From IMG/VR virus record IMGVR_UViG_3300014208_001433, positions 1-64,000 of that record: a stretch of 64,000 nucleotides of DNA; one strand, given 5' to 3'. The position numbers and the translations under genes were made by a program. Below, piece after piece: positions 4,414 to 35,187 of the stretch. The notes beneath the pieces are model-generated. The model saw only the letters and a list, made by a program, of their open reading frames with translations, was not told the origin of the DNA and ran no database searches. Each line of letters begins with the position of its first letter. Position 1 is the stretch's first letter. This stretch comes from a virus.

Positions 4414-4680
4414 ATGAACGACATAAAAGTTAAAAAGGATTATCGAAAAATCCAAATCGTAATTTCTCCTGAAGAGAGAGAAGAAATAAAAGCAAAAGCA
4501 TACGAACTGCTTGCAAAGGAAGATCAAGCGGGTGTACAAACAAAGCTTGCCGAGATGTTGTTTACTTCGCCTCAAAATATTTTTATGGCATTTTCCGGGA
4601 ACAACATGAAGCTAATGGCAAGAATTAAACAATTCATCAACGCTTATACACCTTCAGAAGAATTTCAAAGAACTACATGA
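4414..4680 (+). CDS. Cro-like HTH protein
   Basis: QTKLAEMLFTSPQNIFMAFSG HTH; first gene after the early promoter. Confidence 0.6.
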   Translation: MNDIKVKKDYRKIQIVISPEEREEIKAKAYELLAKEDQAGVQTKLAEMLFTSPQNIFMAFSGNNMKLMARIKQFINAYTPSEEFQRTT

Positions 4681-4818
4681 AACATAACTTAACATATAGA
4701 AAAAGGCAAGTGTTATCATTCGAGCAGAGTTCAAGAAGCGTTCGAGCAGTTCAATTAATTAGGAATTAATAATTACGAATTCCGCCAGAGGCGGATAAAT
4801 AAATTCAAAGGGAAAACA

Positions 4819-5127
4819 ATGAACATGGAAATTTTTAGGGAATTTTATCCGTCTTTTTCAGTCGGGGTAGTTGTTGGGATGATAATTATTCTTGCTGCTT
4901 GCGCTTATGTGTTAATTAAGTCTGACAAGGAAATAGAGAGATTAGAAAAATCAAAGAATATCGAACGCAAAGAATGCGCAAGACTTACCGAAGAGAATCA
5001 ATTTCTAAGAGATGCCAACCAAAAGATAGCCAAAGAAAATTACGATGCGGGTTTTGCTGCGGGGAAAAAAGTTATTAACACTCCCAAATTTGATAAAAAA
5101 TATTTAACCGATGAGGTAACGGCATGA
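4819..5127 (+). CDS. Membrane-anchored coiled-coil protein
   Basis: N-terminal TM helix, RBS. Confidence 0.6.
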   Translation: MNMEIFREFYPSFSVGVVVGMIIILAACAYVLIKSDKEIERLEKSKNIERKECARLTEENQFLRDANQKIAKENYDAGFAAGKKVINTPKFDKKYLTDEVTA

Positions 5128-5318
5128 GCATTAATACAACAATTTTAACTTCAGATGGAGAATCTACAATCATTCTTAACGATGGAGGTTTATCAACCAT
5201 AATTGTTAAAAAGAAAATCAAGAATACCGGATTCCCATTTATTGCCCTTGCGTTCGCAGCAATTCAATTTATTACTAAAAAAATTATAGGGAAGTTTTAT
5301 GAGCAAACAAGATTTTAG
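5124..5318 (+). CDS. Small hypothetical protein
   Basis: ATGA overlap with previous gene. Confidence 0.5.
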   Translation: MSINTTILTSDGESTIILNDGGLSTIIVKKKIKNTGFPFIALAFAAIQFITKKIIGKFYEQTRF

Positions 5319-5499
5319 AGTTTTCTCTACTGTTCAATGCACAGAGCCGGGATGTACAAAGAAAATTAAACAGAATGTGATCAACCGAAAACCTGATGCG
5401 GATAAGTGTTTTAGGCATTGGCCGTTTGCAAGAAGGAATAGATGCCAGGGAAGAAAGTCGGCAGATAGCAGTCAGCAATTAGCAGTAGGCAATAACTAA
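5299..5499 (+). CDS. Small Cys/His protein with heptamer-encoded tail
   Basis: CTEPGC...CFRH; tail encoded by GCAGTNN heptamers. Confidence 0.5.
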   Translation: MSKQDFRVFSTVQCTEPGCTKKIKQNVINRKPDADKCFRHWPFARRNRCQGRKSADSSQQLAVGNN

Positions 5500-5519
5500 T
5501 TTATAAAAAGGAGTTCATC

Positions 5520-5849
5520 GTGGAAATAATTAGGCACATCGTAGCAAGTAACATCGTAGTTCTTGAAAGAATAAGAAAAGATTACGGAGATATACCGGCG
5601 CTTGCAGAGAGTATTAAAAGTGAAGGGTTACGCAACCCTATACATGTAATTGAATCGAGAAACGGTCAATACGTGCTCTTGGCGGGGGAAAGACGGTTGG
5701 AGGCTGTAATGTTATTGGGTGAGCCGTTAATTGCTGTTAGAGTGATTGAGGCGAAGATTAAACCGGAGAATTTCTACAGGTTCCATCGTAATTACCAAAC
5801 CGCAAAGAGTACGATTAAGAATAAGATTATGATTAAGAACTTAAACTAA
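5520..5849 (+). CDS. ParB/Srx N-terminal domain protein (short)
   Basis: LAESIKSEGLRNPI...LLAGERRLEA. Confidence 0.85.
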   Translation: MEIIRHIVASNIVVLERIRKDYGDIPALAESIKSEGLRNPIHVIESRNGQYVLLAGERRLEAVMLLGEPLIAVRVIEAKIKPENFYRFHRNYQTAKSTIKNKIMIKNLN

Positions 5850-7956: not shown

Positions 7957-8272
7957 AGAAGACAAGCGTAAGAAAAAGCCAACGGTGTTGGAAGGCGGAA
8001 ATCGCGTTGCGGTCTCCGAGTTGGAAGCTGCGCAAATAATGGGCTTAAAAGAAAGCGATACATTCCGGGAAAAATTTGTACCGGAACATATTCAGCCAAG
8101 TTATTTCCCGGATAGCAAAAGACCATCATATAATATTTTTGAAGTTTTAGGGTTGTTCGGCAAAACGAAAAAAAAGGAGGAACAGCCACGGCAGATAGTG
8201 GATGTTGCATTTATAGAAAGAGTAAGGAAAATGGCACAGAAAACAATTAGGAATTCCGCCTCAGGCGGATAA
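7940..8272 (+). CDS. Excisionase-like HTH protein
   Basis: VSELEAAQIMGL...RPSYNIFEV winged-HTH pattern. Confidence 0.45.
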   Translation: MPEVVKEDKRKKKPTVLEGGNRVAVSELEAAQIMGLKESDTFREKFVPEHIQPSYFPDSKRPSYNIFEVLGLFGKTKKKEEQPRQIVDVAFIERVRKMAQKTIRNSASGG

Positions 8273-9761: not shown

Positions 9762-9774
9762 TTAGGAATTAGGA

Positions 9775-9933: not shown

Positions 9934-10338
9934 TTGATTAAAAAGGAAAAATCATATCCGCAAAATGTTTTAGCGTTGGTTGATAAGGTCATGGGAGATA
10001 TTCAAAGAAATCTTGGTGAATTTAATACTTGCTCTTTAACCGCCGATAGCATTTTGCAATTTTGCATTAAACTATTAATGAAAGACCCAATCTTTGAACG
10101 TGAACACTTCGATGTAACAGCAGCAGAAGATGGAGACGAAATAAAACTTACACCTTTGAATCTATATAGCCTTTTGTGGTTAAATCACATTAGGGTCACT
10201 TACAAAGAAATCGAAGGGAAAAACGAATTCGAAACAATTATTGGGAAATTCTCAATTAGGAATAGACAAGCGTTATTTGTCCCAATAAAACCATTAGAAA
10301 TGGTTCATATTAAGTTAACCATCGAGGACAAACAATGA
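9934..10338 (+). CDS. Hypothetical protein
   Basis: AAAGGAG RBS before TTG; overlaps sbcD start. Confidence 0.6.
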   Translation: MIKKEKSYPQNVLALVDKVMGDIQRNLGEFNTCSLTADSILQFCIKLLMKDPIFEREHFDVTAAEDGDEIKLTPLNLYSLLWLNHIRVTYKEIEGKNEFETIIGKFSIRNRQALFVPIKPLEMVHIKLTIEDKQ

Positions 10339-11597
10339 AAAATCAACTTATAGGTTTATTTACCGCCGATTGGCACCTCGATAAAGACCCGAAACGAAAA
10401 AGGAAAGCTTGTGAATCGCTTGATCAGATAGTGGATTATGTGAAAAATAATCATGTCGATTACATAGTGCACGGCGGAGATTTTTGGGAAACAAAACAAA
10501 GTTTTGGTGAAAACAGCGGTGTTGAATATGGCTTTGAGTATCTACAAGAATTAGCCAAACATGTTAAAGCGATTGTTATAAATAAAGGTAATAACAACCA
10601 CGATTACCCTCAAAGTATTAGCCTTCTTGCAAGATTAGGAGAAAATATTTTTGCATACGAATATCCGATTTCGCTTGCGTTGTACGACCATGTTGATAAG
10701 ATACTTGGTGTTGATATTTTGCGCGAAAGTGAAGAAGAAACCGTTTACGCAGAAGAGCCGGAATTTATTGTAAACCTTATGCCTTATCCGACAAAAGGAA
10801 TGATAGTTAGGGATATGAGCATTGACGATAATAATAAAGAGTTTGGAGAAGTGTTTGACGGACTAATGGATATGTTCGGTATAACGAACGAGAGGTACAA
10901 GTGTCCGAAAGCATTTAGTTTTCACGGCAATGTAAGAGGAAGCAGATTAAGCACTGGACAGCCTTTAACCGGGCAAGACATAATCATTTCCCCTCTGTCA
11001 TTGCGAAAAGCTAAGGCAGATGTTTACGCATTTGGGCACATACATAATTGGCAGGAGTTTGCACCGGATATGTTTTACACAAGCAGTCTTTACAATTGCA
11101 ATTTTGGTGAGACGGAACAGAAATATTTTATTGTTAGTAAGTTCAATCAGACGGATGAAGGGGTAACAGTTTCATCCGAGAAAATAAAGTTTAAGACTGT
11201 CCGGCCAATGGTGAATGTAACGGCGGAATTCATTAACGGCGAATTTGTGATCAACCAGGAAGTGCCGGAGAACGCTGAGGTAAAGATAAAGTATAAGATT
11301 GAAGAAGATTTGCAAGATCAAGTTACCACAGCAAAAAAGGAAGAGTTAAAGGCAAGGTTTGGAGCGGATGCCATTCTTGAGGCTGATATTGTTCCTGTGC
11401 AGAGAGAAAGCCGCAGCGTAAAAATAATGGAGGCAAAAAATTTAGCTGAAGAATTTACCGAGTATTGCACCATTACCGGAAGAGATGAAGTGTTTAAGGT
11501 AAACGGCGATGCAAAAACACTTAAACGCAGTTATCGTGAAAAGATTGAGTTGATTGAGCAAGGCACACCGCCGGTAGAAGTGCCGGAAGAGTTGTAG
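10335..11597 (+). CDS. sbcD: SbcD/Mre11-like metallophosphoesterase nuclease
   Basis: ADWH, GGD, GNNNHD, FHG and GHIH motifs. Confidence 0.9.
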   Translation: MKNQLIGLFTADWHLDKDPKRKRKACESLDQIVDYVKNNHVDYIVHGGDFWETKQSFGENSGVEYGFEYLQELAKHVKAIVINKGNNNHDYPQSISLLARLGENIFAYEYPISLALYDHVDKILGVDILRESEEETVYAEEPEFIVNLMPYPTKGMIVRDMSIDDNNKEFGEVFDGLMDMFGITNERYKCPKAFSFHGNVRGSRLSTGQPLTGQDIIISPLSLRKAKADVYAFGHIHNWQEFAPDMFYTSSLYNCNFGETEQKYFIVSKFNQTDEGVTVSSEKIKFKTVRPMVNVTAEFINGEFVINQEVPENAEVKIKYKIEEDLQDQVTTAKKEELKARFGADAILEADIVPVQRESRSVKIMEAKNLAEEFTEYCTITGRDEVFKVNGDAKTLKRSYREKIELIEQGTPPVEVPEEL

Positions 11598-11663
11598 AAT
11601 AATTGAAAGTAAAAAGTATCCGCCAGAGGCGGATCAGCCTTCGGCTGAGAAAGGATTAAAAAT

Positions 11664-11978
11664 ATGAACTTTACTTTAAAGCAAAGAGCCAATTTTAAAA
11701 AAATGGTAAAAGCGAGGATGAGTTTAAGTAAAACCGATAATAAAAAATTGGTTTGGATGTTGCTGCAAACAGCTTTTTGGAATGAAAAGATAGAACCTCT
11801 TTCTGAAGAAGAATACATAATAGAAGAAATGAGTGACAGGCTGTTCCCGGAGTTTGACGGTGAAAAAGTTCTTCTTACAGATTACGGTTGGGCCACTCCC
11901 GAAGGTGAGATAAGATACCTTGCTGAAGGCGAAAAGAAAACAGTGGGAGAAATATTATTTGCAGAAATTGAGGTATAA
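11664..11978 (+). CDS. Hypothetical protein
   Basis: RBS; its TAA is the cassette insertion point. Confidence 0.65.
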   Translation: MNFTLKQRANFKKMVKARMSLSKTDNKKLVWMLLQTAFWNEKIEPLSEEEYIIEEMSDRLFPEFDGEKVLLTDYGWATPEGEIRYLAEGEKKTVGEILFAEIEV

Positions 11979-12173
11979 CGGCGTGGCGTTTCATTTGCTG
12001 AGCGTCATTGTAAGAAATATTATTTATTAAAAAGAGGTTATTTATGGAAAGCAATTCAAAAGAAGTATTAGACCAACTTACCGAATATTACAAAAGTGAT
12101 GAAGTCCAAAATTCTTTACAAAACCAAAATTTGACCGAAGAGAAGCGAGGTCAAATGGAAACGCAAGTTAGGC
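11973..12173 (-). mobile_element. attC-like site (reverse orientation)
   Basis: Minus strand: GCCTAAC-5nt-TTT(C)CATT-TG(A)C ... GCA-AATGAAA-9nt-GTTATAC; arms 11986-11997 and 12152-12164 pair with two extrahelical bases. Confidence 0.75.
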
Positions 12174-12391
12174 GGAATTTACCGGTATTGGGCTATTCCC
12201 CTTTAACTGAGCGTATTTATCTTGGGAGAGTGAATAAGAAAAGACCGAATGAATGGAGCGGAGAAAAACGAGATATGACAAGCAATTTTATACAGGTATT
12301 ATTACAGAAATTTGAACCAGGGACAGAGAGCCAAATTACAGTTGGCGGTAAACCAAAATATACAATCACTGTTAGGGAAATTTCCGCCTAA
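12044..12391 (+). CDS. Cassette 1 ORF, phage-type hypothetical protein
   Basis: Starts in the attC loop, ends on the TAA of TTCCGCCTAA|C. Confidence 0.7.
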   Translation: MESNSKEVLDQLTEYYKSDEVQNSLQNQNLTEEKRGQMETQVRRNLPVLGYSPLTERIYLGRVNKKRPNEWSGEKRDMTSNFIQVLLQKFEPGTESQITVGGKPKYTITVREISA

Positions 12392-12538
12392 CTACCAACT
12401 AAGCCGCAAGGAGAAAAAGATTGGAATTTACAGATGCAATAATGAAGCTAAGAAACCAAAAAGATGAGGATAGTTTTAGAAAATTAGTGGACAAAGATTA
12501 CAAAGAAAATTTTATGAAATGATAGGCACAAGTCGGTT

Positions 12539-12724
12539 TAACGTATCGAGCGTAAACGGCAAAAATTGAGAAAGAAATAACAATAATTATAGGAGATAAA
12601 ATGTTAGAAAAATTAAAAGCATTAAAAGCAGTTATTGAACTAACTGAAAGCAAAGTTGGATTAGAAACGGTAAAAGAATTAATTATGGAAATTGAAAACC
12701 GTCCAATTGAGCAGCAAGTTAGTC
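12539..12724 (-). mobile_element. Second (degenerate or hybrid) attC-like site
   Basis: Right arm G-T-CC-AATT-G-AGC-AGCAA-GTTAGTC (12701-12724) has the same spacing as the first site; left arm after TAAC (12539-12542) pairs only partly. Confidence 0.5.
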
Positions 12725-13092
12725 GTGAAGTTGGCGGACGAGAAAAGAATATTGTTAAAGATATTGCAACGATTATTAATCAACACAGCCGAGAAAATGC
12801 AAGCAACACACCAGATTTTATTCTTGCAGAATATTTAGAACGTTGCCTAATAACATTTGAAATGGCAAGTAACGCAAGAGAAAAATGGTATGGTAAAAAA
12901 TTGAGTATTGGTGGAACTGATAGCAATTTCCCGGAAGAAGGGATTCTTAAAGATATTATTTTCATGATACGATCTGAATTTTTGCTAAATACACAAAATT
13001 ATCCCAAAGAATATCATTCAATGGTTGATTCAAAAATCAAAAGATTAATCAAACAAATTAACGAAAAGTACAAAAGTAATTTTCCGGAATAA
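12601..13092 (+). CDS. Cassette ORF, phage-type hypothetical protein
   Basis: AGGAG RBS; SNTPDFILAEYL motif; ends TAA|C. Confidence 0.7.
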   Translation: MLEKLKALKAVIELTESKVGLETVKELIMEIENRPIEQQVSREVGGREKNIVKDIATIINQHSRENASNTPDFILAEYLERCLITFEMASNAREKWYGKKLSIGGTDSNFPEEGILKDIIFMIRSEFLLNTQNYPKEYHSMVDSKIKRLIKQINEKYKSNFPE

Positions 13093-13096
13093 CTAA

Positions 13097-14719
13097 ATGC
13101 CAAGATCATTAATCCCTTGGGAACATCCGCTGCGGGATTGGCAGCAGGACGCCAACGAAATAGTAATACGAAAAGTGAAAGCCAAAGAGCAGGATGCTCT
13201 GCTTGTTGCAACACCGGCATCCGGTAAAACACGAACGGCTTTGCGGTTTGCACATAAACTTTACTTCATGCACTACATAAAAAGAATTGTTGCGGTAGTT
13301 CCAACAGAGCATTTAAAAAAGCAGTGGGCGGAAGACGCGCATCTTTACGGGATTGATCTTGACCCGATGGTGGAGAACCGTATCGGAAAAGAAGGAAGTG
13401 ACTACCACGGAGTTGTGCTTACTTACGCACAGCTTGGTATGGACGCGGATATTCATAAACACTTTACGGATAGCACAAGCACCTTAGTAATTCTTGACGA
13501 AATCCATCATGCGGGAGAAAGTAAAACTTGGGGAGATGCACTAAGAACAGCTTTTGAGAATGCTTTTTTTAGATTAGCGTTAAGCGGAACGCCATTCCGG
13601 AGAGACAACAATCCTATCCCTTTTGTAAAATATGTAAATGATGTTAGTGTTTCGGACTATGTTTATTCTTATCAGCAAGCAGTTGAGGATAATGTTTGCC
13701 GGGCGATATACTTTCCAGCTTACGATGGAATTATGGAATGGCAGACGGATGGAGTGACTTACCGGCATAATTTTGAGGAACAGATCAGTCAGGCAAGAGA
13801 GAGCGAAAGATTAAGAACTGCATTAGATCCGAACGGCGAATTTATGAAGCAATTTTTTCTTGACGCAGATAAAAAACTAAATGAGATAAGGCGAAGCAAT
13901 CACCCGGACGCGGGAGGATTAGTATTAGCGATCGATCAAGAGCATGCGGCAAGAATTAAGAAGATGATCTTTGAGCTTATCGGAGAATCTACAACTATTG
14001 CGGTTAGTGATGACAAGAACGCGAGCAAACATATTAAGGAATACAAACGAAGAAAAGATAAATGGTTGATAAGCGTTAAGATGGTAAGTGAGGGTGTTGA
14101 TATTCCCAGGCTAAGAGTTGGTGTGTATGCGACAAATGTAGAGAGCGAATTATTCTTCAGGCAGGTTACGGGAAGGTTTATAAGAGTATTGGCACATCTT
14201 AAAAGTCAGGATGCGTATTTGTACATCCCTAAGCGGCACGAGCTGGTAAGATTTGCAAGAGAGATTGAACAGGAAAGAGACCATGCGCTGAATACCGCAA
14301 AAGAAAAATGTGATAAAGATTTGTTCGGGAAGGAAATTGAACCGAGAGAGAAGGAGCAAAAGGATTTCAAAGTAATTTCGGCAGAAGTAACCGGCACGAT
14401 GGAAATAAAAACAAATTTTACAGATAAGATCTCCACAATGTTTGGTTTACCTAAAGCAAAAGCCGCACAGATAGCACAGAGTATAGTACAGCAGCCAACA
14501 CAAGCAGAGATACCGGTATTTGAGAAGATAAAGACACTTAGGAAAGAGATAAACGATTTAGCTATGGTTTATGCCAAGAATCGCGGCAATGGCTCCGTAG
14601 ATTGGCAATTAGGGCATAAGGATTGGATTAAGTTGGGTGGACGAAGCATTGAACTTGAAACTATGCCCGAACTAATGAGACGGCGAAGATGGTTACAAAA
14701 TAATTTGCAGAAAAGTTAA
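13097..14719 (+). CDS. SF2 DEAD/DEAH-box helicase
   Basis: ATPASGKT, DEIHH, SGTP, EGVDIP, QVTGRFIR. Confidence 0.92.
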   Translation: MPRSLIPWEHPLRDWQQDANEIVIRKVKAKEQDALLVATPASGKTRTALRFAHKLYFMHYIKRIVAVVPTEHLKKQWAEDAHLYGIDLDPMVENRIGKEGSDYHGVVLTYAQLGMDADIHKHFTDSTSTLVILDEIHHAGESKTWGDALRTAFENAFFRLALSGTPFRRDNNPIPFVKYVNDVSVSDYVYSYQQAVEDNVCRAIYFPAYDGIMEWQTDGVTYRHNFEEQISQARESERLRTALDPNGEFMKQFFLDADKKLNEIRRSNHPDAGGLVLAIDQEHAARIKKMIFELIGESTTIAVSDDKNASKHIKEYKRRKDKWLISVKMVSEGVDIPRLRVGVYATNVESELFFRQVTGRFIRVLAHLKSQDAYLYIPKRHELVRFAREIEQERDHALNTAKEKCDKDLFGKEIEPREKEQKDFKVISAEVTGTMEIKTNFTDKISTMFGLPKAKAAQIAQSIVQQPTQAEIPVFEKIKTLRKEINDLAMVYAKNRGNGSVDWQLGHKDWIKLGGRSIELETMPELMRRRRWLQNNLQKS

Positions 14720-28046: not shown

Positions 28047-29903
28047 GTGATTTCTTTCCTAAGAGAATTCTTAGGGAGAGAGCCGGGCAAACTTCAGCGA
28101 GAAGCTTATCTTGCCGTTTGGGGGAACGATCCCTCTGTATGGGATAAGAAATTTCACGAAATAGTGTTGCTGGTTGGAATGAAGGGAGGGAAGAACTATT
28201 GGGCTGAGGGTGATATTGCTTACGCAACTTACAGGATAAGCTGTTTAGAAAATCCACATGAATATTTTGGAGAAGTTACGGGATCATTGGTGCCGTATCC
28301 TCCGGAAAAAACCTTTGATCTTGTGAACGTTAGTATGGTAAACGAATTACAAGCAAAGCGAGCGTTCTTTGAAAGTGTGAAAAATGTACTGAAGCTAACA
28401 AAAGACCCGAAAACGGGAGATAATTGGTTTGAGAGATACGCCGGGCTAGACCTTCGGGAACAGTTTGGAGATCTGAAAAAGAAAGAAATAGTTTTCCCGG
28501 TAAAGAAGAGCGGAGGAGGAAGCATAAGGCTTTTATCTTATAACAGCAGCAAACAAGCGCCGGAAGGAATACACATGCTTAGGGGTTATGCAGACGAACT
28601 TTCGCGAGCAGAAACAAAAGTAACTTACGCGCAGGCGGAAGGATTGTTGGAGCTTCTTTTAGGCAACACAAAGGCAAGTTTTCCGGGCAACATAGGGAAA
28701 ACAATGGAATGGGCTTATCCGAACGAAACAGATTTTGATTTAACAAACTACCGGTTTGAACTTTCACAAGAGTTGGACGAACAAGGGAAGTTAAAGAATC
28801 CCGACATGTATGGAATGAAAGCCACAACCTGGGATTTTAACCCGGCAAGAACGAAAGAGATGTTTGAAAAAGAATTCAGGACAAATCCATTACGCGCGAA
28901 TTGCCGGTTTGGTTGTGTTAAGCCGATAAGCAAGGATAATTTTTACCAGCCGTATTCTTTTAAACTAAAAGAAGCTGTTGACACAAGCATAAAGAACAAA
29001 ATTCATTACAAACCGAAGAAGGTTTACCGAAAATTAGACAACGGGAACACAAGCACGTTTTCAAGTATTGAAGTGCTGAAGATTGAAGGGGACAAACGCG
29101 AAAGATGCCTTGCGTATGACGCGGGGAAAACAAAGGATAGGTTTATTATCGGTTTGGGGTACGGTGAAACGATTGACGCGAAGAGGATGGAGTTGTTTAT
29201 CGATTCAGAGATTGAGGTTATTCTTACGAACAAAAAGCCGGTAATTGATGTACTTGTAATAATCGAACCAACGCCAGGTTGTCCGGTTGATTATCTTAAA
29301 ATAGGCGATATCCTTTCAATCTTCTTAAAAGCATTCCCGAACATAAAATCCGCAAACAGTGATCACTTCCAGAACGAAAAATTAAGGCAGGAGATAATTG
29401 CCAAGGGGATTGATGCACAGACTTACAACTTCAGCAATAAGCAGCAAGTGAAGCTTTACGAAATGGTAAGGTGGAATACTTGGAATAACAACATTGCTAT
29501 TTGTGGAGATGATGAAGAGACGCACAAAGTACAAATTCTTTTAGTTAAAATTTCTCCCTCCGGACTTTGGGTATTGGAAGGGGAAAAGCTTATGAACTTA
29601 GGAAATAAAATCGATCACCCGGCGGGATACAGCAAGGATGTGCAGGACGTTGTAGCAATATTAAACCACGATATTATGGCGCTTGAGACGCAAGGAGTAG
29701 CAGGCATGGCAGATGGAATAGACGGACTGAGTGAAAGCAAGTTGCGGGAACTTGCAGAGCGGTTTATGGATATTAAGAGCGACTTATTAAGGGAAGAAGT
29801 TGAACCGGACAAGATGCTGAAGATGATAGCGGAAAAGATGAATCTTGACTTGCGGCGCACAGTAAAGTTAGCCGAATATGTAAGGGAAATTTATGATTAT
29901 TGA
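28047..29903 (+). CDS. terL: Terminase large subunit
   Basis: GMKGGKN Walker A, YADELS Walker B, LAYDAG and DHP..SKDV nuclease motifs; GTG 28047 has a GGTGAGGT RBS (frame is open from 27879). Confidence 0.85.
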   Translation: MISFLREFLGREPGKLQREAYLAVWGNDPSVWDKKFHEIVLLVGMKGGKNYWAEGDIAYATYRISCLENPHEYFGEVTGSLVPYPPEKTFDLVNVSMVNELQAKRAFFESVKNVLKLTKDPKTGDNWFERYAGLDLREQFGDLKKKEIVFPVKKSGGGSIRLLSYNSSKQAPEGIHMLRGYADELSRAETKVTYAQAEGLLELLLGNTKASFPGNIGKTMEWAYPNETDFDLTNYRFELSQELDEQGKLKNPDMYGMKATTWDFNPARTKEMFEKEFRTNPLRANCRFGCVKPISKDNFYQPYSFKLKEAVDTSIKNKIHYKPKKVYRKLDNGNTSTFSSIEVLKIEGDKRERCLAYDAGKTKDRFIIGLGYGETIDAKRMELFIDSEIEVILTNKKPVIDVLVIIEPTPGCPVDYLKIGDILSIFLKAFPNIKSANSDHFQNEKLRQEIIAKGIDAQTYNFSNKQQVKLYEMVRWNTWNNNIAICGDDEETHKVQILLVKISPSGLWVLEGEKLMNLGNKIDHPAGYSKDVQDVVAILNHDIMALETQGVAGMADGIDGLSESKLRELAERFMDIKSDLLREEVEPDKMLKMIAEKMNLDLRRTVKLAEYVREIYDY

Positions 29904-30231
29904 TGGACAAGTTAAAATGAGAGAGAAGCGGATTTGTGAATATCCGCCGTGTAATAACGAGGTAACATCTCCAAACAAAGCGGTAACACATTGCTGTTGT
30001 GAATGCGGGTGTGCTCACCGATTGTTGAAGGTGAAGAACTGTAAACAATGCGGAGGGGAAATTGATAGGAAGGGATTTATCTGTAAAAAGTGTTTTAGGG
30101 AAAATGACGAAGCGCAGCATAAAAAGGATAATGCAAAAAGAGGGGGGAGAAAGAAATCTGATTTTGAAAAGAAGTATGAAATCCCCTTACGGCATGACAT
30201 AGTTGCGCGAGCGTATGGATGGGTGAGCTAA
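29893..30231 (+). CDS. Cys-rich Zn-finger protein
   Basis: CEYPPC, CCCECGC, CKQC, CKKC. Confidence 0.6.
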   Translation: MIIDGQVKMREKRICEYPPCNNEVTSPNKAVTHCCCECGCAHRLLKVKNCKQCGGEIDRKGFICKKCFRENDEAQHKKDNAKRGGRKKSDFEKKYEIPLRHDIVARAYGWVS

Positions 30232-35119: not shown

Positions 35120-35187
35120 TTCCGCCAGAGGCGGACAAGTAGGAATTGTCAATTAGGAATTAGGAATTAAAACCAAAGGAGAACAAT

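Follow-up and report, generated by a model that had tools for sequence, protein, structure and literature searches.

A probable integron-type cassette array, without an integrase and with reversed polarity, in a prophage early operon

Integrons are viewed as devices of bacteria and, more recently, as places where cassettes for anti-phage defence are stored. Bacteriophage genomes also contain clusters of attC sites that lack an integron integrase (CALINs), and 17 such clusters were described by Qi et al. 2023 (PMC9892861). IntI1 recombined five of the six phage attC sites that were assayed there, and the idea that a host IntI can act on phage-borne sites is thus already published (PMC9892861). 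The sites in that study show the typical co-orientation or are divergent, and reversed open reading frames (ORFs) are not mentioned (PMC9892861). The DNA considered here is positions 1 to 64,000 of the IMG/VR record IMGVR_UViG_3300014208_001433, called the window below. It covers the first 64 kb of a contig of 119 kb, which consists of about 93 kb of prophage and a terminal 26 kb of host chromosome. The slot of interest is located in the early operon of the prophage, between a sbcD-like nuclease gene and an SF2 helicase gene, and is probably part of a short integrase-less cassette array of integron type. The observation itself is confirmed, and it lies beyond chance given the match to an attC model and the chain complementarity of the cassettes. 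Integron cassettes in phages are already published, while the back-to-front design of this locus is, as far as we found, undescribed; the literature search gave nothing on reversed polarity or attC-overlapping ORFs in phages.

The locus is similar to the phage CALINs (PMC9892861) in its attC-bounded cassettes, in the lack of intI and in a cargo of function unknown, and the DNA methyltransferase cargo of those clusters is represented here in the sister phage L014. In contrast to them, the genes of the window group lie throughout on the attC bottom strand, co-directional with the phage operon, and some of the ORFs start inside attC. In addition, the cassettes turn over in one fixed slot across sister phages, and a covariance model ties the sites to the chromosomal attC family of the host family.

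Two other known systems should be compared. T4-type phages reportedly contain hyperplastic regions with mobile promoter-stem-loop cassettes (PeSLs), in work of 2010 attributed to Arbiol et al. As in those regions, small early genes are swapped in fixed slots and a conserved intergenic element flanks each of them. However, the PeSLs are promoter/terminator modules that reportedly act through homologous recombination, while the present elements are homologous to attC and have a crossover point that is defined. In view of the covariance-model search, the idea that these repeats are promoters or boundary modules of the PeSL kind was abandoned. Insertion of integron cassettes at secondary sites other than attI (attG, GTT-type) is said to have been described by Loot et al. 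in 2024. The present cassettes resemble such insertions in lying outside a platform and in that only G|TT is conserved (here CATTTAG|TTA, minus strand). The target here would differ from attG-type insertion in lying within an operon of the phage at a distance of 4 nt to a start codon, in its apparent reuse and in an orientation that would force the reversed polarity. The term attG occurs in PMC12901181.

The intact attC site of the window (11973-12173, 201 nt) is located on the minus strand, so that the phage + strand is the attC bottom strand. All motifs quoted for it by the sequence-only reading, an earlier annotation made from the letters of the window, are present in place. The segments GCGTTTCATTTG (11986-11997) and CAAATGGAAACGC (12152-12164) form a 12-bp stem, in which the + strand has an extra G. 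Read along the minus strand, the site begins with the R'' box GCCTAAC (12173-12167, GTTAGGC on the + strand), followed by TTGCG and L'' TTTCCATTTG. The remainder consists of a 154-nt centre, L' CAAATGAAA, the spacer CGCCACGCC and the R' box GTTATAC (11979-11973, GTATAAC on the + strand), and thus the R'' (RYYYAAC) and R' (GTTRRRY) boxes are both found at the ends. The stem contains one bulged C (minus strand) and then an unpaired A, corresponding to the extrahelical bases G and T on the bottom strand. The same unpaired C and A of the top strand are retained in all eight phage sites presented below. The TAAC and GTTA are retained in seven of them, the exception being L015 731-863 with GTTC in the R' box. 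The 5-nt and 9-nt spacers and the extra C at position 4 of L'', all pointed out by the sequence-only reading, are the same in the attC sites of the host family. The 9 nt which it had called long is the norm there, and CGCCACGCC agrees with the host consensus in 8 of 9 bases.

The assignment as attC comes from a covariance model for which only chromosomal attC sites were used, 15 in all from four genomes of the host family, with no phage site included; one of the source arrays is located directly downstream of a 430-bit IntI gene. The window site was found on the minus strand, the strand proposed earlier, and it is matched over its full length with 38.1 bits (E 1.4e-5 for 105 kb searched and 3.4e-7 locally, values that are rough because the calibration was short). 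Nothing else in the 64-kb window has E < 1. The model also matches L009 at 4500-4620, 4955-5080 and 5325-5525, L015 at 88-218 and 731-863, and L010 at 5115-5246 and 5581-5711, and these seven sister sites score from 25.6 to 52.4 bits. All eight phage sites are within the slot and have the minus-strand orientation, which is opposite to that of the genes; outside the slot, no match with E < 0.3 was found in the complete G401 and G403 (158 kb) and in the window. The phage sites are shown by this search to be attC homologues of the same sequence family as the sedentary chromosomal integrons of the host family. Five of the phage sites are 121-132 nt long, the site of the window and L009 5325-5525 have 201 nt, and the G+C content is 0.26-0.43 compared with 0.33-0.49 in host sites. 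A CALIN has at least two close attC sites; the window contains one intact site and one decayed arm, and intact sites number three in L009, two in L010 and two in L015.

The two arms of these sites covary, as the earlier reading had expected for homologues. Across the eight phage sites 89.9% of the cells are paired, compared with 65.9% in shuffles and 25-44% in slid controls, these figures being somewhat inflated as the alignment was fitted to the model. Compensating changes on both sides are present in 16 of the 21 pairs.

Other search procedures were rejected. A crude regular expression for R''/R' that required local complementarity missed real host sites. A looser geometry scan did find the real host sites and many false pairs too. 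By single-arm weight matrices the slot matches are among the best, yet not unique in the window. As a separate observation, the attC 88-218 of L015 is overlapped at its R' end by a 36-nt palindrome, GCATAAC...GTTATGC (L015:67-102), whose outer heptamer is perfectly complementary to the R'' of that site. The palindrome may represent an alternative R' box or the minimal remains of a site.

If cassette circles enter by a G|TT crossover, the R'' box is predicted to be complementary to the distal terminal heptamer of its own cassette and not to the local R'. In the window, GTTAGGCGGAA (12167-12177, R'' as GTTAGGC followed by GGAA) is the exact complement of TTCCGCCTAAC (12382-12392) in 11 of 11 positions. 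Cassette 1 is therefore the 413-bp segment 11979-12391 (+ strand), beginning with the C of GTATAA|C and ending with the AA of GCCTAA|C, with the same boundaries as in the sequence-only reading. R'' is complementary in 7/7 positions to the end heptamer of its own cassette in six of the eight phage sites, and the matching heptamer is each time the R' box of the next attC or the junction with the next unit. The chance of finding this in at least six of eight is about 7e-14, from the heptamer frequencies of the phage genomes. The same chain is seen in host arrays, where each R' is complementary to the R'' of the site that follows. The cassettes thus carry the chain complementarity left by circle insertion at G|TT (AA|C), and their stems covary.

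It is also important to compare the slot in the sister phages, which are L009 = L012 = L013 (G401), L010 = L011 = L016 (G403), L014 and L015. The conserved flanks are the sbcD-like gene on the left (10335-11597, + strand, Pfam Metallophos, PHROG 100) and the SF2 helicase gene on the right (13097-14719, + strand, Pfam ResIII/DEAD, PHROG 16), followed by a sbcC-like gene. The flanks of the sisters are 79-92% identical to the window in DNA and the helicases 92-97% identical in protein, and the content between sbcD and helicase is wholly different in each sister. Homology ends at window 11560-11617 and returns at 13089-13091, the slot being variable from the sbcD end (about 11600) onward. The helicase clusters P0001 and P0002 contain helicases with 98% and 87% identity. 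Related phages thus bear different cassettes in one slot, and the breakpoints that can be resolved lie at AAC.

These breakpoints are best seen in a ribbon-helix-helix (RHH)-like unit, common to L009 and L014, of which the window retains the first 40 nt (12392-12431, the leader and first codons). By BLAST this unit starts at AAC behind three unrelated neighbours, which are orf115 in the window, in L009 another ORF of 115 aa, different from it, and in L014 an N6/N4 methyltransferase. An exact scan of viral contigs for its leader returned the known contig only. At the other end of the slot, three different last cassettes (of the window, of L009/L014 and of L015) abut the helicase as TAA|CTAAATG; the L010-type phage has no TAAC junction before the helicase. 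In the window this junction is GAATAA|CTAAATG (13086-13099, + strand, including TAACTAAATG, which the window, L009/L014 and L015 have in common) and leads up to the helicase start at 13097. It is the candidate point of insertion, which on the minus strand reads G|TT and is 4 nt upstream of the ATG of the helicase. The AA|C crossover suggested earlier thus agrees both with the chain complementarity and with the breakpoints of the shared unit. The junctions predicted from it are GAGGTATAA|CTACCAAC for the deletion, GAGGTATAA|CTAAATG for the empty site, and GCCTAA|C joined to GGCGTGG... for the 413-bp circle.

Cassette 1 contains orf115 (12044-12391, + strand), a member of the DUF7446 family of function unknown (PF24233, 51.8 bits for residues 49-110; PHROG 29770). 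The left neighbour of its attC is orf104 (11664-11978, + strand, function unknown), which ends in GTATAA|C. This gene has no similarity to L009 orf106, found at the same position with the same GTATAAC end, and orf104 is thus not ancestral. On the right, cassette 1 is followed by a truncated unit (12392-12541, + strand) with a 33-aa ORF (12421-12522) and the end GTTTAA|C, in which the covariance model finds no attC. Cassette 2 (12542-13092, + strand) ends in GAATAA|C and carries orf163 (12601-13092, + strand, function unknown, PHROG 18819).

The site of cassette 2 is decayed. A second cassette with the same arm spacing had been claimed from the letters of the window. It does possess the TAA|C end and a host-like R''-L'' arm, GACTAAC-TTGCT-GCTCAATTGGAC (12701-12724, minus strand), but the L' arm that should pair with it is absent. 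A foldable attC at 12542-12724 is not confirmed, the full model giving about 2 bits. The arm, located within codons 34-41 of orf163, is with 13.8 bits the top 5'-arm match of the window by a position weight matrix derived from host 5' arms. The heptamer upstream of this cassette is GTTTAAC (12535-12541), and its R'', GTTAGTC (12718-12724), agrees by eye with the complement of the end GAATAAC in 6 of 7 positions. The earlier description as a cassette array thus holds for the intact attC of cassette 1, but a clean array is not present, and only cassette 1 (11979-12391) of the window looks still recombination-competent. Relatives with the empty site GAGGTATAACTAAATG, which that description had called for, were not found among the phages compared, in which the slot is variable from about 11600 and orf104 is itself variable.

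The gene polarity was correctly described as reversed. All phage cassette ORFs are located on the attC bottom strand, downstream of attC or overlapping it, and do not follow the usual though not obligatory rule of one promoterless ORF on the top strand, upstream of attC, while in the host metagenome-assembled genome (MAG) and in same-genus chromosomal cassettes the ORFs are on the attC top strand. As attC is opposite to the phage genes, the order of a cassette along the coding strand is C, attC (bottom strand), ribosome-binding site, ORF, ...TAA. The statement that the ORFs start in the attC loop is valid for three of the eight sites (the window site, L009 5325-5525 and L015 731-863), but at the other five the ORF starts past attC, behind a GGCGG-type ribosome-binding site. 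The long form of orf115 has a GAGG ribosome-binding site before ATG 12044, with its first 43 codons within attC. The DUF7446 match, however, starts at residue 49, which is TTG 12188, an alternative start 15 nt past attC, so that either codon may be the start of orf115.

The stop codons of the cassette genes are also characteristic. TAA followed by C ends all three genes of the window slot (orf104, orf115 and orf163) and six of six in L009, and is found in 5 of about 66 other + strand genes of the window. The stop of orf115 is the crossover TAA. The earlier proposal that the ORFs stop at the crossover TAA therefore describes a common arrangement but not a universal one, as L015 orf169 and L010 orf101 are exceptions.

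The integrons of the host lineage are well represented in related genomes. From the names on helicase homologues the host belongs among the Ignavibacteriales/Melioribacteraceae. True IntI, above the curated cut-off, was found in 74 of 151 host-order genomes, one of them of the same genus (G484, 430 bits). Its cassette array is located downstream of intI on the same strand (L050 = G484:C84:89300-97067), and no host array was found upstream of intI. The attC sites of G484 and of three further genomes of the family are 186-226 nt long and constitute one conserved family. Their R'' is GCCTAAC or TATAAC and is separated by 5 nt from an L'' that has the extra C at position 4; after a long centre come L', a spacer of 9 nt (CGCAACGCC-like) and an R' that reads GTTAGGC or GTTATAC. 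Compensatory changes are present in 10 of the outer 21 pairs. In the host-family integrons at L050 and L051-L053, intI is co-directional with the array, and the attC sites are unusually long and conserved in sequence, with a centre lacking consensus structure.

The phage sites share with the sedentary integrons of the host family (G484, G382, G342, G354 and the host MAG arrays) the R'' YTAAC, the 5-nt spacer, the extra C at position 4 of L'', the unpaired A, the 9-nt spacer, the R' GTTA, the long poorly structured centre and the chain complementarity. The host integrons differ in their sequence-conserved and slightly G+C-richer sites of 186-226 nt, in their top-strand ORFs, in an intI co-directional with the array and in having no cargo in common with the phage.

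The host MAG itself (G000) contains at least 11 strong host-type attC sites, with 50-118 bits, on six other contigs. The contigs named with chromosomal attC are C75, C7, C6, C99, C67, C15 and C17 (loci L057-L062 and L064). A cassette on C75 (L064 2155-2722) has two small reversed ORFs that look like a toxin-antitoxin pair. The search of the host for intI and similar attC sites, proposed earlier, was thus successful for attC but not for intI. A complete integron, with intI, an adjacent attI and an array, is not seen at the slot. The attI site is not recognisable by sequence.

One type of sister phage retains a trace of an integrase. In the L010-type slot, an 84-aa C-terminal fragment of an integron integrase (L010:5733-5987, equal to G403 29803-30012, and also in L011 and L016) is found between attC and the helicase. 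It scores 102 bits with TIGR02249 but 74 with XerC/D, and its identity to the IntI of the same genus is 65%. By these matches, the fragment looks like debris and connects the slot with an integron platform.

The arrangement of the sites allows us to propose a mechanism. The phage having no IntI of its own, the recombinase would be the integron integrase of the host, acting in trans on the folded + strand of the phage, and such action is plausible. Circles would be inserted into a G|TT of the minus strand that precedes the helicase start by 4 nt, a secondary site of GTT type or one resembling attI, and there may be a further insertion point in front of the RHH-like unit. The orientation of this target would set the reversed polarity, and only cassettes with a bottom-strand ORF would be useful to the phage. 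The reversed cassettes could be expressed by read-through of the phage operon, and the stops at the crossover TAA may maintain termination-reinitiation coupling to the next gene.

Several points weigh against reading the slot as an array served in this way. The window contains a single intact site beside the decayed arm. The orf104/orf106 pair and the RHH-like unit vary between phages with no recognisable attC of their own, which indicates that part of the variation of the slot comes from other recombination. No intI above the cut-off was found in the host MAG (95.6% complete, 307 contigs), nor in the window, as the sequence-only reading had stated, or in the phage genomes G401-G403. For orf115 and orf163, no homologues were found in 300 host-order genomes beyond one weak match, so that no exchange with host arrays is seen. 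The third helix of the window site is disrupted, and folding of 11970-12180 as single-stranded DNA (ssDNA) is no better than that of shuffles (z -0.46 and -0.83); the z-scores of the intergenic elements of the slot are also not significant. To these should be added the rough E values and the inflated covariation figures mentioned above. The folding had been suggested as a check on the site, but this result is not counted against it, because the centre of the host attC is also long and without consensus structure.

An extension of the array reading, which we put forward tentatively and with some doubt, is that the phage lineage holds its own pool of inverse-polarity cassettes with phage-type cargo, exchanged at present through a borrowed host integrase, and that the design of the sites is adapted to the phage. 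An occasion for such borrowing could be, for example, the SOS response, if it induces the prophage together with intI. In such a design the recombinogenic strand would be the coding strand, attC would be partly translated, and the crossover TAA would serve as the coupling stop. The cassette cargo has matches to phage families (PHROGs) and no host-order homologue, and the cassettes thus look phage-adapted and not fresh from host arrays.

Of the explanations that compete with a working cassette array, the one that survives best, though unlikely, is a fossil array. The slot would then be a piece of a chromosomal integron acquired by an ancestor of this phage group, or a set of cassettes which that ancestor gained by IntI, with sites that are now inert. 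The sister phages would differ by homologous or illegitimate recombination between co-infecting phages, with the flanks and attC arms as homology patches. The genome is indeed a mosaic, with about 30 replacement slots between the window and G401/G403 that break at gene boundaries with no common motif and no attC. The variation of orf104/orf106 and the RHH-like unit, the decayed site of the window, the integrase remnant of the L010 type, which looks like debris of a captured platform, and the host MAG without a detected intI all fit this explanation. However, eight sites are full-length to the model, with compensating stems and the unpaired C and A, which argues for continued selection on the fold. 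In addition, the chain complementarity is perfect in six of eight sites, and the cassette content is completely different between phages with 88-92% identical flanks.

A recombinase encoded by the phage is a much less probable agent. The prophage does carry, at its left end, a tyrosine integrase (416-1462) and a truncated serine-recombinase-like gene, and the enzyme could be this integrase or another in the 93-kb genome. However, the sites are homologous to attC sites that adjoin a true intI of the host family and are not of another design. The tyrosine integrase scores 31-32 bits against the IntI family and is located 10 kb away, next to the attachment end. The idea that there is no recombination site at all, the slot being an ordinary variable one with a chance resemblance to attC or with terminators and translational signals, could draw on the folding energy, the many false pairs of the loose pattern scan and the similar scores of single-arm matrices at a few other places, but it is practically dismissed, being already contradicted by strand- and slot-specific model matches, strong covariation and the low chance of the chain complementarity.

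The cassette array, as described, means that this group of phages uses the chromosomal attC family of its host to vary small genes of the replication operon, with turned-round cassettes expressed by the phage operon rather than an integron promoter. If the host integrase moves the cassettes, phages and hosts would share one recombination machinery for opposite ends. Early-gene hot spots of phages would then gain a defined and testable mechanism. If, in addition, the lineage exchanges a cassette pool of its own in this way at present, phages would exploit integrons as a service for shuffling genes, possibly those for counter-defence, and integrons would be more than a store of bacteria. For uncultured phages, the attC family provides an assignment to a host, and the locus is a natural example of protein-coding sequence overlaid on an attC fold.

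The prophage is colinear with G403, a circularly permuted 92-kb phage of IMG/VR. The homology to G403 stops at C1 93320, outside the window, and at window position ~300, near the tyrosine integrase, and these points mark the ends of the prophage; no tRNA gene was found in C1 64-119 kb. The 26-kb host flank is syntenic with all seven same-genus genomes searched, with 65-69% nucleotide identity. A distant blastn of 11000-14500 against INPHARED phages gave no match, and a helicase scan of genome contigs found no close relative. Prophages in the host class with 46-49% identical helicases have another gene order and no TAAC pattern, and were set aside as uninformative.

Two repeated elements occur in the window. 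The hairpin TCCGCCAGAGGCGGA (11619-11633, + strand) has the look of a terminator and is located outside any attC, the model finding none there. Identical 15-nt intergenic copies are present at 4781-4795, 11619-11633 and 35121-35135, with a variant at 8255-8269 on the minus strand, and they are positioned at the edges of variable slots. Nearly all of the approximately 30 replacement slots break at the ribosome-binding site or the ATG of the next conserved gene. The second element is a tandem heptamer, TTAGGAATTAGGAAT, located directly 3' of many + strand stop codons (window positions 9762, 17612, 35153, 38913, 46050, 54240, 59692 and others), with 13 matches against 0.47 expected. Several mosaic breakpoints fall inside it, and it could be a regulatory or recombination signal of the phage.

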